NCBI GenBank assembly: GCA_037446635.1
Contig: JBBIIG010000058.1
Span: 1-25,578, forward strand
Direction: 5' to 3'
Origin: a bacterium
GTDB lineage: Bacteria > Zhuqueibacterota > Zhuqueibacteria > Oceanimicrobiales > Oceanimicrobiaceae
DNA length: 25,578 bases
Numbering within the stretch: the first letter of the stretch is position 1; each line of letters starts with the position of its first letter. A program made the position numbers. Shown here piece after piece: positions 6,001 to 15,000 of the stretch.

Positions 6001-9000
6001 GATGAACGCGGGCAGCCCCAAGCGCGCGGCGCGCTGCCAGACCATCTCCACCCATTCAGGGGCGTAGCGCAGCGAATATTCTTCCTGGTAAATTTCCAGA
6101 TCGCGGTCGCCCACCATATCCAACAAAATACCCCAGCGCGGCCGGTAGTTGGGATCTTTGTTGTCGGCAAAATACTGCGCGCCGAGGGCGTAGCTTTCGG
6201 AGCGGCCGGATTGGCCGGCGTCCTCGCCATCGAAAAGAATAATATCAACCCCGTAACGCGGCGGCGTGCGCTGAAGGTGGCGCGCCGTTTCCAGCAGCAC
6301 CGCCACGCCCGAGGCGCCGTCGTTGGCGCCCGGAACGGGTTTGGAACGGTTAGCTGGCTCGGGGTCCTGATCGGCGAGGGGCCGGCTGTCCCAGTGGGCG
6401 CACAGCAAAACCCGTTCGGTTTTATCGACTCCAAAGCTGGCGACAATGTTGGTCAAAGTTACGTTTTGACCGGTCAGCGGCAACTTTTGTAGAAAAGTTT
6501 GGTGCACAACTTGAGCGCTGAAGCCTTGCAACTCTTTGGTGAGAAAGTCGCGGCAGGCGCGGTGCGCCGGGGTTCCGGGAACCCGCGCTCCGAAATCGCA
6601 CTGTTTGATGAGATATTGATAGGCGTTGTCGCCGTCAAAAGCCGGCGCGGCAGCGTTGCTCAATAAACCGCAGGCAAAAGATTCAACCAAAATTAAGAGC
6701 AGCCAAAAATAGCAGCGATGAGCGGAGCCGATTCGTTCCTCCGAAGTTAATTCCCTCTGATTGAAATGTTGACGTCGATTCCGAATTCCTGCACCGAGGT
6801 TTTGCCGGCGCGTTTGCTGTCGGTGGCGCCGACTTCAAAAAAAGCGCCGCCGCGTACGCGGTTGCTGAACGAATAGGTGAGGCTGGGGCGAAACGCCCAG
6901 CGGTTGGTGCGGTCCTGCACCTCGAATTGATCCTTGCCATCGACTTTGCTGATGCTGCGCTCGGTGGTCACGTCGCTTTTGGTGAAAGTGAAATTGAAAT
7001 CGATGGAATTTTTTAATTCACCTTTGTTGAAAGGCCAAATAGGAATTCGAAACCCCGATTGCTTGGAATAGGTAGCAGTGACGGAAATATCGGATCGAGT
7101 GGTGCGGTTGGCGCCCGTGCTCACGCGCGGGTTGCGGCCTAAAGTAACCGAGTGGTTCACCTGGATGTTGCCGGTGATGCCTTTTTTGAAATTCAAATCC
7201 AATTTGCCTAAGGGGCGGAAGTTGGTGCTCACACTTTCCTGGGTGACCTGATCGCGCACGCCGCTCCAGGTGATGTCCTTTTGCCCTGAAAAGCTGTGGC
7301 TGAGTGTGACGGTACGGAAGAGACCACTAAAGAAAGGCAGCTTTTCCAGCCCGGAAATGCGCACAGTAATTTCCGGAAACGGCGTGTTGAAGCCGCCAAA
7401 CCGCAGCCAGTTGTCAGAATAGCTGCCGGAAATTTGAGTGGTTTCGTTGCGCTGCTCGTTGTGATTGTAAGTCAGCCCGATATCGAAAGCGCGGCCGAAC
7501 GTGAGCCCGGAACCAGCGCGATAGGAGCGGCTCTCGCTGAAATTGCGAGCCTGGGTGGCGAGGCCTTCAACGGTGTCCACGCCGGTGTTAGTGGACAAAC
7601 CGAACTGGAATCCCCAGCTGGGATTGTCGCCCGCCAGTCCAAACTGGCTGACGTTGGTACGCTCGGTATAATTGAAGTTGATATCGCGAAATTTAGAAAT
7701 AAAACCGCCCAAAAGCTTGAGCGGATTCATGGAGAAGCCGCCCTCCTTCTTCTCACCCTCTTGAAAAATGATCAGCTCGTTTGGGGGATTTTCGCGCGCG
7801 CCGGGGTCGCGGCGCTCGCCCCGTCCGGGAGTTGGCGTCGGGCGTTTTTGCCCAGTTCCGAAAACCGAGCGCGCCAATTGCTGCAGCCGCAGGGTAAAAT
7901 CCGCGGAACGGGTTACGCCGCTGTTGGCGCTGCGGCCCGTTCGCCCCTGTTGAATGTTGTCGTTGAAAGTGTAGTTTGCAGTATAATTGAAAGAGTTATT
8001 CAGCCAGCTAAAGATGTTGGGGGTGTAGCGTGCGGTAAAATTCTGGGTGACGTTGAGATCGCGCGGCTTGAGGGTGAACATTTCGTAAAGTTGGCGGTCG
8101 CGCATGTCCGCCTTGTGGGTGCGGGTCACATCCACCACCAGGCTCTCGAACACTTTCATGTTGACGCGGGCGCTGCGATCGACAGTGAAATTGAAGGTTT
8201 CGACAATGCGAACGGAATCCTGGTTGGCGGTGGACTGCAACCGGCTTTGCGAGCGCTGCAATGTGCGCGCGCCGTTGGCGCGGAATGAGACATTTTGTGG
8301 GGTGTAATAAAATTTCGTGGCGCGCACTTTTCCAATCAGCGGCAGGTTGGGCACCCAGGAGAACGGCGAAAAAAAGTTATTGCGGCCGAACTCGATGCGG
8401 TAATCCAGGTTGCCGGTCCAGGAAGTATTGTCGGAAAAATTAATAGTGGGGCTTTCCGCGTGGCTGCTGGTCTGGCCTAAACTGAACGAAAGTTTGTCCA
8501 AGGTGTGCTTGAGAAAAAAATTGTTGGAAGTGACCTGCCGGCGAAAGCTGATGTTGAAGCCGCTCTGCTCAGTGATGGAGCGCACCAGCCGCAGCGAGTC
8601 GGCGCTCAGGTCGCCTGTCACCAAAAGATCGCGGCCGGGGAAATATTTTGGCGTGTCGGTGCGTTTGCGAAAATTCATGCTCAATGGCATGGAAACCCCC
8701 CACGAGGCCGGCAGAAATTTATCCAAACCGAGGTTGAGATTGAGGCTGCCGGAGGTGCTGTTGTTGCCGTTGCCGAAGCGCTCGGCGACGTTATGAAAAT
8801 CGGCGTCGCGCCGTTCGATGTCGCCGCTCACCGTCGCAAAATCTGCGATCTGCATGTTGGCGCGGAGGCGCATGGCCATGCCCTTATCGCGATCGACGTC
8901 CGAAAGCCGCAGCTCGTTGAACCAAACCTCGCCCGTGAATTTATCAGTGGGGTGCAAATTCTTGATGCCGATAACCAAGGTTTTGATATTCGTCAACGAG

Positions 9001-12000: not shown

Positions 12001-15000
12001 GAACCCTCCTCCGCGCCGCCGCTGAGGGAGATGCGCTGGCTTTCGCCTTTTTCCTGGCTGGCAATGGTGGTGAGGTTCAAATTGCCCAGTACCATTTCGC
12101 TTTTCAAGCCGAAAAGGCCGGTGTTCTTGCCGCTGAAAGTTACGTACTGCGTGCCGGGCAGAGAGAGGGAAATGTTGCCGGCTTCGATTTTTTGAATGAC
12201 TTCGTCGTCGTAGCCCTGGTAGTTGATGCGGATGTTGTTTTCAAAATCAAAGGCGCGCTCGCTGTCCTGATCGACGTTGACGGTAACTTTGTCGCCGATC
12301 TTACCGGTCACCGAAAAGCGCTGCTTCTGCTGCATGTTGAAATTGGTGGTGGCGCCGCGGGTGAGGGCGGTGCGCACTTCGCTGCGGTCTTCACGGCGAA
12401 TCTTCGCCTGGATGCTGATGTCGCCGGAAACCGTCAACCCCACGGTGCCGCTGCCAAACACTTTTTGAAAGGCCTTGCTTTTGATCTTGAGCGGGATATC
12501 CAAATTGATGCCGCCGCCTTGCCCCTCCTGCTCCGCAAATGCCACGTTCGCTGAGACATACTGCCGCCAGCTCATGTTCATGGTCCGCCGTTGCATCATC
12601 TGGAGATATTCAGCGAACGTTAAAACCAGCGGCGCCCGAACATCCTCCTCCAAAACCGTTTCGCGCACCATCACAAAATCTTCCAGCGACTCAATCTCGA
12701 CGATTTCGCGGGCGCTGTTGTAAAGCGCCGGCCGCGAGCCGGGATAATAGCCGTGATGAGAAAACACCGGCTGCTGGTTGCGCTCCAAAAATCGCGACGC
12801 CCAAAAACCGTCGGCCTTTAAGCCTAGCGCCGGGCTGAACGCAGACGCAGAACTGGCCGCGCCGAACACAAAAGCCGCCAGACAAAATTTGGAAAGGAAA
12901 CTCGAGTTAGAAAACATGTTTTGCGAGCACAGCTTAATTAGACGAGAGCGGCTGCTCTCCCCTCATTGGAGTTCGATAATTAAAAACCTAACAAAAATTT
13001 ATATCAAACTACTCGATGCTGCCTCCGAAACATGTTTGTGATGAAGTGTGATATTAGAAGCGGCTGGAACTTAATGATTCTATTGTTGAATTGCAAGAAA
13101 AATTTACGGCCGGAAGGCGCCGAAATTAAGCTTGATATAGTAGGCCGGGGTACGTATATTGATCGCAATTTTGACGACGCTAATGAGACAAAAGACGGTT
13201 ACAATTTAATCCATGCCACGCATTTTGCCCAGCTATTTTATCAGAGAACACATTGGGCCGTTTTTCTGGGCGCTCATCACCATCAATTTTGTTTTCATTC
13301 TCAACATCCTGTATCGCGACCTGGGGAAATTCTTGAGCAAAGGCGTCGCGTTTCCGATCATCCTGGAATTTCTGTTCCTGAATCTGGCGTGGATGATCGC
13401 GCTGGCAGCGCCCATGGCCGTGCTCACCGCCACCATCATGGCGTTCGGCCGGCTGGCGGCAGACAATGAAATCACCGCCGTGCGCGCCAGCGGCGTCAGC
13501 TTGTACCAAATTCTCTTGCCTTTGGTGTTCGTAGCGGCGCTGCTCACCGGCGCGCTCATCCTGTTCAACAATTATGTGCTGCCTGATTTCAACCACCGCG
13601 CGCGTCTACTGGCCATGGATATCGCCCGCAAAAAACCGATGATCAATCTCGAAGCTGGCGTCATTTACTCGGACATCCCGAACTACAAAATTCTCGTCGA
13701 AAGAGTGCACGAGATCGACTCCGTTTCTTATGTCAAAGATTTGATCATCGACGATCAGAACAACGCCAACGCCATCAAAACCATCGTGGCGGACAGCGCC
13801 GAGCTGCGCTTCGATCGCCAAACCGGCTGGCTGACCATCGCCATGTTCAACGGCGAAGTGCACGAAGTGGATTTCAAAGACCCGGGACGATTTAAGCGGG
13901 TGGAATTTCAGAAGCAACTCATCAAAATCGCGATGTCGGAAATTCTCCTCACCCGCAGCCAGTCGGAGTACCGCGGTGATCGCGAAAAGAGCGCCGCCGC
14001 GCTGATGGCAAACGTGCGGGAAAATCAGGCGCGCATCGCCGAGCGCAAAAAATCCATCCACCAAAAAATGGTGGAGCAGTTTTACAAACACAACTTGAGT
14101 AACGGCCAGCCGCGGCCGATTTTGGCTAATCTCATCACCGAACACGAGAACCTGCGGCGATCGCTCAAAGCCGATTTGGACATGATCAACGGCTTCCAAA
14201 AATCCGTCAACATCTACCTGGTGGAGGTGCATAAAAAATATGCCATCCCCGCCGCCTGCATCGTCTTCGTGCTGGTGGGCGCGCCGCTGGGCATCCTCAT
14301 CCGCCAGCGCGGTTGGGCCATCGCTGGCGGCCTGAGCTTCGGATTTTTTCTTTTGTACTGGACGTGTTTGATCGGCGGTGAAATTCTCGCCGACCGCCAA
14401 ATCATCAGCCCGTTCTTCGCCATGTGGACTCCCAACCTTATCGCGGGCGCCATCGCCGTAATGTTAGCGGCCAAATCCAGCGGCGCCGCGCCGGCCTGGC
14501 TGCGCCGACGAATTTGAAACCCGATGCGAATTTTAGACTGGTATATTTTGCGGCGCTTCGGCTTCGCGCTCATCTACGCCATCGTGATTTTTGTGCTGAT
14601 CGTGATTTTCGTGGACATGGTGGGCAACCTCGCCCGCTTCATCGACCGCGACGTCCCGAAAACCATCATCGCCAAATATTATCTGGTTTACATCCCCTAC
14701 ATCTGGATTTTAGCGATGCCCATCGCCATGCTGCTGGCCAGCCTCTTCAGCATTGGGCAGATGGCACGCACCAACGAGCTCGTCGCCATTAAATCCGTGG
14801 GGGTCTCGCTTTACCGCATTCTCTTTCCGATGCTTGCGCTGAGCGTTCTCATCAGTTTGCTGGCGTTTGGCTTTGGGGAAAAGATCGTTCCCGCAGCCAA
14901 CCAGCACAAATCAAAAATCGAAAACACGTTTCTCGAACCGGCCAGCGCGCAGAGCGCCGCTCGGGCTTCCAACATTTTCTGGCGCGATAAAATCGATCGC

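Follow-up and report, generated by a model that had tools for sequence, protein, structure and literature searches.

The stretch of DNA that we analysed (the window) covers positions 1 to 25,578 of contig JBBIIG010000058.1 of an uncultured Zhuqueibacterota bacterium of the Oceanimicrobiaceae (assembly GCA_037446635.1; genome G000), one of the organisms also called KSB1 bacteria. On its minus strand, at 6747..12917, lies sprA, which encodes the SprA/Sov translocon of type IX secretion (T9SS) in a single intact reading frame; the product is 2056 aa long and carries a signal peptide. The protein is matched by PF14349 and by TIGR04189 (859.9 bits, cut-off 200), and its sole relative in the PDB is the SprA of F. 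johnsoniae (6h3i_A; phmmer E 4e-72). Directly behind sprA, on the same strand, is a gene for an M28-family peptidase (5815..6690; PF04389, E 1e-35), and an M28-like gene occupies this position in most of the 30 loci compared. In G000 the M28 gene is followed by prmA and ppx, which take the place of an exbB-exbD-tonB cluster found behind it in some relatives (sprA, M28 gene and exbB within 1.8 kb in 8/40 loci). Divergent from sprA, on the plus strand, are an lptF-like gene (13213..14517; PF03739), with counterparts of the same size and orientation at the SprA loci compared, and lptG (14524..15600; TIGR04408, 249.9 bits, over cut-off); both are conserved neighbours, and the lptF-like gene stands outside the secretion machine.

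SprA was matched at E<=1e-3 in 167/167 genomes of the phylum, including all 105 of high quality, and was over cut-off in 163, where a preliminary description of this DNA had counted 165; the frames at the listed loci are long and intact. Tallies over the 167 genomes take in two unpublished records, G158 and G162, and the conclusions are independent of both. The T9SS partners of sprA in G000 all lie on other contigs. They include the PorU sortase (C6:34394-38440; NF033707, 866 bits, cut-off 420), 25 PorV-family matches (16 over cut-off), the main PorV among these (C5:102998-104032; NF033709, 304 bits; NF033710, 242.5 bits, just below its cut-off of 250), and cargo proteins bearing the C-terminal (CTD) signal, of which TIGR04183 finds 115 (114 over cut-off) and our own profile 121. 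SprA, sortase, barrels and cargo, all listed in the preliminary description, are thus present, and two candidates are additions to that list. One is PorZ-like (C24:19649-21844; 240.5 bits across the full model, cut-off 260); the other is SprE-like (C46:2605-4731), the best match to NF052312, collinear with the model and below cut-off (126 bits, cut-off 250), with one strong match per genome in 58/61 genomes, scores that TPR repeats inflate. The Plug family (PF17116) gave no match in G000, G085 or G176 and was present in 2/2 controls, a search whose sensitivity may be limiting, since a Plug is reported in Ignavibacterium (PMC11705866). None of the T9SS models matched any of three small barrel candidates, no search aimed at the SprT/PorT, PorD or PorE families having been made. 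Carriers and cargo are also paired: CTD subtypes track their carriers, and a carrier follows 0/87 general-type CTD genes as against 17/34 of the others, these 17 including all four cargoes of the cassettes described below.

The inner-membrane motor and the ring, by contrast, could not be recognized, as had been claimed. Reviews place GldK, GldL, GldM and GldN among the core T9SS genes (PMC5445135). On G000 the TIGR models reached no better than E 0.026 for GldM and E 0.51 for GldL and gave no match for GldN, and profiles that we built from Bacteroidia sequences (45 GldK, 74 GldL, 74 GldM, 67 GldN) gave best values of E 0.05, 0.008 and 1.5 for GldL, GldM and GldN, respectively, over 46,189 six-frame ORFs; the E 0.008 match is, judging from its sequence, an OmpA/MotB-type coiled-coil protein. 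For GldK, searched in G000 only, the TIGR model and our own profile found the same two FGE-fold genes, whose adjoining genes are not L, M or N. We rejected both as GldK: one is an FGE-type gene and the other, by resemblance, an ergothioneine EgtB-type gene. Over the phylum, the GldM alignment matched 0/167 genomes; GldL matched 5/167, weakly, in frames of 635-1167 aa, the membrane part being left out of the match; and GldN matched 2/167 at E>1e-3, none over cut-off. Positive controls that had previously been missing recovered GldM in 11/11 Bacteroidia and GldN in 5/5. As far as sequence profiles reach, neither the motor nor the ring can be detected, and the outer-membrane half of the system is complete and conserved.

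This absence had been presented as a trait of the whole phylum. The absence holds and extends beyond it: GldM was found in 0/24 sampled genomes named as Ignavibacteria or other non-Bacteroidia (a comparison without Rhodothermia, Calditrichota, Marinisomatota and Fibrobacterota), as against 11/11 Bacteroidia, and in a tree of SprA the GldM-positive Bacteroidia form one clade set against a diverse GldM-negative clade. Genomes that have sprA but no gldKLMN may already be listed by McBride and Zhu (2013). A survey detected the T9SS in Bacteroidetes only (PMC4793230), and a single sentence, in a section headed as dealing with the horizontal transfer of SprA, notes that Melioribacter and Ignavibacterium have SprA-PorV but no other T9SS genes (PMC11705866). 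A motorless SprA-PorV is already known for those two genera, and what is added here is a candidate replacement motor.

That candidate comes from gene order. Over 98 ExbB-ExbD clusters from 18 genomes, some of them related and so not independent, 30 have a PorV or PorP gene within five genes upstream on the same strand, against a background of 88/3833 genes (2.3%); profile matches of ~420 aa near sprA were taken as FadL-like and left uncounted. At least one such linked cluster occurs in 17/18 genomes, and in G000 five of eight clusters are linked; carrier-motor clusters of this genome lie at C62:13092-22133, C25:4370-16571, C25:22068-36786, C38:21965-32634 and C14:55645-65470. In the ExbB tree the linked proteins occupy four separate branches, A, B and D (support 0.988, 0.972 and 0.977) and C (two sequences, weak support); branch D also holds unlinked orthologues from other lineages, and the ExbB linked to sprA forms a fifth branch. 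Dedicated cassettes, missing in 5/18 genomes, run in the order cargo, tailed carrier, ExbB, two ExbD, TonB-fold protein and TPR protein, whereas the conserved D cluster reads porV-porV-exbB-exbD-exbD-tonB. Where the D-type ExbB and the CTD gene at the head of the porV pair share a contig, the former follows the latter at 2.0-7.6 kb in 60/60 genomes (they are on separate contigs in 57/117), and the genes in between vary, with none remaining in G147. The D-type ExbB was found in 129/167 genomes of the phylum and in only 2/14 of the family of G112, a 95% complete genome with no linked ExbBD cluster.

The proteins of these clusters have features of a Ton-type motor. PF01618 (ExbB) and PF02472 (ExbD) are matched, and both the aspartate motif of ExbD and the threonine motif of ExbB are retained; the aspartate is invariant across 14 aligned type A proteins, whereas type C lacks it in its second ExbD. 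The ExbBs of the cassettes measure 310-556 aa and have extra Fn3, TonB_C-like or Big_1 domains, and the long ExbB had no usable match in the Atlas. The type A carrier is predicted to fold as a 14-strand PorV/FadL barrel with a helical, TPR-like tail, and the unannotated fifth gene of this type as one membrane helix followed by a TonB C-terminal fold, the seven best fold matches all being TonB/TolA domains (Z 6.5, below 8; rmsd 3.7; 85 aligned residues). Type C and D transducers exceed the cut-off of TIGR01352, the candidate type B transducer matched no family, and in the type B cassette a type B-like CTD cargo is encoded together with a PorP/SprF-like carrier. A search for homologues of the type A TonB protein returned 48 proteins, few of them named and mostly from unclassified bacteria (one KSB1 and one Calditrichaeota label), and a scan of the collection with the type A ExbD alignment, which was swamped by generic ExbD, added two type A cassettes, its other 78 loci being unrelated and having no PorV/PorP. 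Look-alikes combining PorV and TPR were seen in clusters in which Elusimicrobiota or Spirochaetota are the most frequent taxa.

The preliminary description concluded that these bacteria must drive SprA-dependent export in another way, and named no motor. An alternative drive is likely; "must" is too strong, because export in these lineages might need no motor. Gene order points to ExbB/ExbD/TonB-type motors as the alternative, and the repeated encoding of carriers beside a second kind of proton-driven motor suggests an older way of powering export. We give about an even chance (roughly 0.5) to the reading, built on gene order and fold, that the T9SS works here through an energy chain other than GldLM-GldKN-PorG, in which loaded carriers are drawn off SprA by an ExbBD-TonB motor. 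We carry over from F. johnsoniae (PMC10994853) that the loading of cargo onto its carrier within SprA costs no energy, which is needed to pull the loaded carrier out. A proton-driven ExbB/ExbD motor would do this through a TonB-fold transducer, gripping, in the dedicated cassettes, the C-terminal periplasmic extension of the carrier either directly or via the TPR protein encoded with it. The conserved D cluster is the candidate motor for bulk cargo, and the GldLM track would have been added in Bacteroidia to a translocon that is older.

The strongest competitor, to which we assign a sizeable minority share, holds that no inner-membrane motor is needed: the carrier would diffuse off SprA, ratcheted by PorU cleavage and anchoring, and the work of the cassette motors would come after export, either to move or retract a surface protein bound to its carrier or to open the PorV barrel so that substrates can be taken up. 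The main PorV has neither a tail nor an adjoining motor, the PorV fold is shared with FadL uptake channels, the PorP/SprF-like carrier of the type B cassette belongs to a class in which cargo stays on its carrier, and loading is energy-free in vitro, all of which suit this account. So does the taxonomic distribution of the link, which was seen in 0/17 clusters of 12 other motorless genomes and 0/20 clusters of 10 Bacteroidia genomes (54 of the 96 upstream genes were rechecked with Pfam); since these 37 clusters lack it, synteny leaves the wider motorless set unexplained. The single-contig genome G176 has one ExbBD cluster only. Also counting against the motor reading, D-type ExbB orthologues in Ignavibacteria and Bacteroidia lie away from porV, and about 30 genes of G000 match a TonB-dependent receptor profile and need a Ton motor anyway; G112 with no linked cluster, the D-type ExbB found in 129/167 genomes, the 5/18 genomes without a dedicated cassette, the D markers on separate contigs and the TonB fold score below Z 8 weigh on the same side. 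Against diffusion alone, cargo in F. johnsoniae stalls on SprA without the motor (PMC10994853); the SprE-like gene, whose counterpart is required for release there, is retained in those 58/61 genomes; and exbB-exbD-tonB follows sprA in the 8/40 loci noted above.

It is unlikely that GldL, GldM, GldK and GldN are present and diverged past detection, or that an unrelated unknown motor is at work. GldM is only 18-43% identical within Bacteroidia, and other parts do score near or below their cut-offs (PorV 242/250, PorZ 240/260, SprE 126/250), yet these diverged parts were all found at E<1e-30 while L, M and N gave noise. A topology screen that passes 69/74 GldL and 61/74 GldM proteins found no real L-then-M pair among the 3833 genes of G000; in Flavobacteriaceae loci the GldK profile picks up a 561-aa paralogue as well, as against FGE-type genes only here; and PF19573 (DUF6089), which we take to be the PorG family, is over cut-off in 10/10 Bacteroidia and 0/28 motorless genomes.

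The Agl-Glt motor of Myxococcus, built of ExbB, two ExbD, TonB-like and TPR proteins, acts on outer-membrane barrels. That such a motor (TPR, ExbB, two ExbD and a GltG-like TonB), or a MotAB cassette with a FliF/FliG fusion, powers export is less probable still: Agl/Glt-like clusters occur in 16/18 genomes and in G000 (C3; NF033760 GltG, E 1e-24), but none lies beside a carrier or sprA, and none was among 20 regions compared from outside the phylum. We rejected MotAB with FliF/FliG as a general motor, the full-length fusion being present in only ~22/167 genomes. A relic or non-exporting system, whose CTD matches would be FlgD-like domains with another role, is the least credible account, for although the PorV-TPR look-alikes and the failure to find Plug would fit it, SprA is matched throughout the phylum, with long intact frames at the listed loci, PorU scores at twice its cut-off, and some 120 cargoes have CTD subtypes that track their carriers.

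The system of these bacteria shares with the T9SS of Flavobacterium johnsoniae and Porphyromonas gingivalis SprA, PorV-family and PorP/SprF-like carriers, PorU, PorZ-like and SprE/PorW-like candidates, type A and type B-like CTD signals, and cargo genes that adjoin their carriers, as PMC12618676 describes for type B cargo. It differs in having no GldL/GldM motor, GldK/GldN ring, DUF6089 barrel or detectable Plug, and in its long C-terminal carrier tails and at least 16 PorV paralogues. The tail of SprF bonds to GldK (PMC12635249), whereas only 1/9 PorP-like carriers here, two of them truncated at the region edge, has a cysteine among its 40 C-terminal residues. Like Ton (ExbB-ExbD-TonB) and Tol (TolQ-TolR-TolA), the clusters combine ExbB/TolQ and ExbD/TolR families that retain motor residues with a single-helix transducer of TonB C-terminal fold; unlike them, they have long, multidomain ExbBs in the cassettes and adjoin secretion carriers and cargo, not TonB-dependent receptors or TolB-Pal. 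Cassettes resemble Agl-Glt in composition, but their ExbBs form separate clades and GltG is absent, and the phylum's own Agl/Glt-like clusters are unlinked to T9SS genes. With Melioribacter and Ignavibacterium, noted for SprA-PorV, these bacteria share a translocon without motor and ring, although that account reports Plug and has no SprE, PorU or alternative motor (PMC11705866).

Tentatively, and with less assurance than for the motor itself, the ancestral T9SS of the FCB group may have consisted of SprA-SprE-PorV-PorU driven by ExbB-ExbD-TonB, which KSB1 bacteria would have expanded into cargo-specific cassettes, each a carrier with its own periplasmic handle and a motor, possibly for post-export movement of surface proteins, with GldLM/GldKN a later replacement in Bacteroidia. 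A 2025 paper infers that the T9SS first evolved within the gliding machinery, its energy supply (PMC12635249). A translocon conserved over several lineages without gliding machinery challenges that order of events, and an ancestral ExbB-ExbD-TonB T9SS, if true, would reverse the proposal. If a TonB-type motor acts on secretion carriers, there would be two ways of powering release, and the small cassettes of cargo, carrier, motor and transducer allow the force-driven ejection of carriers from SprA to be tested with few components.

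The SprA/Sov translocon of the window (6747-12917, minus strand) is a 2056-aa protein encoded in a single frame; it carries a signal peptide and scores 859.9 bits on TIGR04189. Its only PDB match is SprA, and its named relatives are KSB1 (Zhuqueibacterota) records, some filed under other labels; the family was matched in 167/167 genomes of the phylum, over the cut-off in 163/167. Directly behind sprA lies an M28 peptidase gene (5815-6690), whose product may be a glutaminyl cyclase similar to P. gingivalis PG2157; glutamine appears to be the N-terminal residue of many mature secreted proteins here. 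The lptF-like and lptG genes are divergent from sprA, and at 3-1861 two slightly overlapping frames, one metallophosphoesterase-like and the other of choice-of-anchor D type, run off the contig end and are possibly one split secreted protein.

The preliminary description held that the motor (GldL/GldM) and ring (GldK/GldN) are missing from this phylum. As far as can be judged from sequence and topology, they are indeed absent; this state proved broader than claimed and partly anticipated in print. With TIGR models, GldL, GldM and GldN gave only noise in the genome under study, and the GldK matches were two FGE-fold genes. Our own profiles, from 80 Bacteroidia gldM loci (45 GldK, 74 GldL, 74 GldM and 67 GldN proteins), found no further candidates among all 46,189 six-frame ORFs of this genome, the scope of the GldK search. 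Across the phylum, GldM was found in 0/167 genomes (alignment of 36 of the 74 proteins), GldL (34 of its 74 proteins aligned) gave five weak matches, none of which includes the membrane part, and no GldN exceeded the cut-off; positive controls were recovered by the GldN (5/5) and GldM (11/11) models. DUF6089 was not found in 28 motorless (SprA-bearing, GldM-lacking) genomes, nor Plug in the three searched (G000, which is studied here, G085 and G176).

An SprA motif scan returned 80 loci, 79 confirmed as SprA, and 48 of their genomes were searched for GldM. In this set, of unstated completeness, it was present in 11/11 Bacteroidia controls, 4/13 vaguely titled genomes and 0/24 genomes titled Ignavibacteria (20), Kryptoniota, Zixibacteria, Latescibacterota or Chlorobiaceae. 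A midpoint-rooted SprA tree of 89 sequences (2 dropped) and 655 columns placed the four vaguely titled GldM-positive records with Bacteroidia (43 tips, support 0.906) and the eight vaguely titled GldM-negative ones outside (46 tips, support 1.0), with KSB1 as a single clade (0.985). No motorless SprA was nested within Bacteroidia in this tree, which speaks against a recent transfer; with a midpoint root, any order of events is an inference. According to section 8 of PMC11705866, the T9SS proteins of Melioribacter and Ignavibacterium are limited to PorV, SprA and Plug. T9SS core genes are listed in PMC5445135; the system was confined to Bacteroidetes in one survey (PMC4793230) and may occur in further FCB phyla according to statements in PMC11285876 and PMC5837995.

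Ten ExbB/MotA genes were detected in the studied genome, and in 5/8 of its ExbB-ExbD clusters a carrier (a PorV- or PorP/SprF-family barrel) lies just upstream. In 18 better-assembled genomes (115 matches; 100 regions fetched, covering 104 of them), a carrier was upstream in 30/98 clusters, in 17/18 genomes, against a background of 2.3%; this count leaves out one match of another kind and ten that are probably MotA, judged by a neighbouring FliG match in eight cases and by length alone in two. The linked ExbBs occupy separate tree branches, which means that the link either evolved or was retained on several occasions.

Four layouts recur. Type A (8/18 genomes; two copies in the studied genome) comprises cargo, a PorV with a ~300-aa tail, one or two long ExbB, two ExbD, a small membrane protein and a ~1070-aa TPR protein. 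Type B (5/18 genomes and the studied one; carrier directly upstream in 6/10 loci) combines cargo with a type B-like C-terminal sorting signal (CTD), a PorP/SprF-like barrel with a FlgD-like tail, a long ExbB, two ExbD, a gene in the TonB position and TPR; genes for cargo with a type B CTD are described as adjoining those of their carriers in PMC12618676. Type C (G139 and the studied genome) consists of cargo, a PorV with a FlgD-like tail, TPR, ExbB, two ExbD and TonB, and type D (12/18 genomes and the studied one) of a CTD protein, two PorV, variable genes, ExbB, two ExbD and TonB. The D-type CTD gene occurs in 151/167 phylum genomes and the D-type ExbB in 129/167. Among 144 genomes with listed CTD coordinates (second copies and two unpublished genomes left out), the two were linked in 60/60 sharing a contig and lay on separate contigs in 57; for the porV pair itself, the observation is limited to 13 regions. 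An ExbB of a fifth clade lies directly behind sprA-M28 in 8/40 loci with enough sequence, and also in G123, which was kept out of this count because the sets can overlap. The fifth clade also includes the ExbB of loci L404, L453-L456, L485 and L490, where a ~1000-aa TPR protein and a 530-600-aa barrel with a TonB-box-like start precede ExbB-ExbD-(TonB), a layout kept in KSB1, Ignavibacteria and Bacteroidia.

In its model (pLDDT 65), the type A carrier has 14 strands with helices behind them and matches PorV 6h3i_F and FadL; given the even strand number, its tail should face the periplasm. The small membrane protein has no Pfam match, but its model combines a single helix with the C-terminal fold of TonB, and the long ExbBs carry extra Fn3, TonB_C-like or Big_1 domains. 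In the studied genome, a CTD gene preceded a carrier for 17/34 variant and 0/87 general-type signals, indicating that variant signals track dedicated carriers. PorV-family barrels (639-1051 aa in total) whose C-terminal extensions are long also stand behind CTD cargo without an adjoining motor (C15:55789-58884, C42:26227-29382, C2:35728-37647). Elsewhere (C1:55459-62310, C3:151119-157246, C26:18003-25529, C21:56265-62618, C6:58909-66637) a TonB-dependent receptor, a CTD protein and a dedicated PorV recur, and the secreted protein may be held on its own carrier in place of SusD.

In F. johnsoniae, cargo-carrier binding in SprA is reported as energy-free and release as requiring the motor (PMC10994853), and cysteines in the carrier's periplasmic tail are reported to bond to GldK, transferring force to the carrier (PMC12635249). 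KSB1 carrier tails, in contrast, form long domains, most of which lack a terminal cysteine, and their neighbours are Ton-type motors. We propose that such ExbB-ExbD-TonB motors would drive release of carriers from SprA, a reading to which we give a probability of about one half. The carrier link was seen in 0/17 ExbB-ExbD clusters of 12 other motorless genomes and 0/20 of 10 Bacteroidia (40 of 57 matches fetched), and G112 has no carrier-linked cluster. Also against a Ton-type release motor, D-type ExbB orthologues outside the phylum occur without porV, and a Ton motor is required in any case by ~30 TonB-receptor-like genes of the studied genome. The main PorV lacks both a tail and an adjoining motor. 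Passive release, with the cassette motors acting later or in uptake, is the strongest alternative, if a less likely one.

A hidden or unknown motor seems improbable. A topology screen calibrated on real proteins (recovering 69/74 GldL and 61/74 GldM) flagged 13 of 3833 genes; the sole GldL- plus GldM-shaped pair reads in sequence as histidine-synthesis enzymes. At C9:7654-13093 lies the gene of a 608-aa protein that is FliG-like in its C-terminal part and presumably resembles FliF in its N-terminal part; the genes behind it encode a protein predicted to be secreted, one small TPR-like protein, MotA and MotB. Full-length matches to it occur in ~22/167 genomes, no separate FliG match was found in the studied genome, and a flagellum-independent rotor is possible. 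Two Flavobacteriaceae (L482, L487) have an exbB-exbD pair at a distance of three genes from a GldK-family paralogue of 561 aa that is probably gldJ. Two paralogous Agl/Glt-like clusters (C3:55750-65099, L354-L356, L376-L386 and others) are present in 16/18 genomes and encode TPR proteins, a small protein, ExbB, two ExbD and a GltG-like TonB; that they power export is doubtful in the extreme.

That nothing is exported is the least credible reading of all. Judged by its matches, the outer-membrane half of the T9SS is complete: PorU reaches 866 bits, the family model gives 304 bits for the main PorV, a PorZ-like protein scores 240 bits across the whole model, and 16 PorV-family and 114 CTD matches exceed the cut-off. 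The best SprE/PorW match, a TPR lipoprotein (C46:2605-4731), aligns collinearly under the cut-off; its G085 orthologue is likewise the best match there, and its first 265 residues are strongly matched in 58/61 sampled genomes.

We found no literature on T9SS in KSB1 or on its powering by ExbB/TonB, and nothing to that effect in PMC12421860, PMC7323717 or PMC8542988; older surveys and supplements may list motorless genomes. Related accounts describe CTD-like cellulases in Fibrobacter with a co-induced ExbB/ExbD/TonB cluster, interpreted there as cellodextrin import (PMC6851124), a possible draw of force by PorE from a TonB-like protein (PMC12204202), a cell-attached CTD xylanase cited for Rhodothermus (PMC6539836) and TonB-dependent secretion in Myxococcus (PMC6434023). 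The carrier-motor cassettes appear to be undescribed so far, and they offer a concrete candidate replacement for the missing motor.
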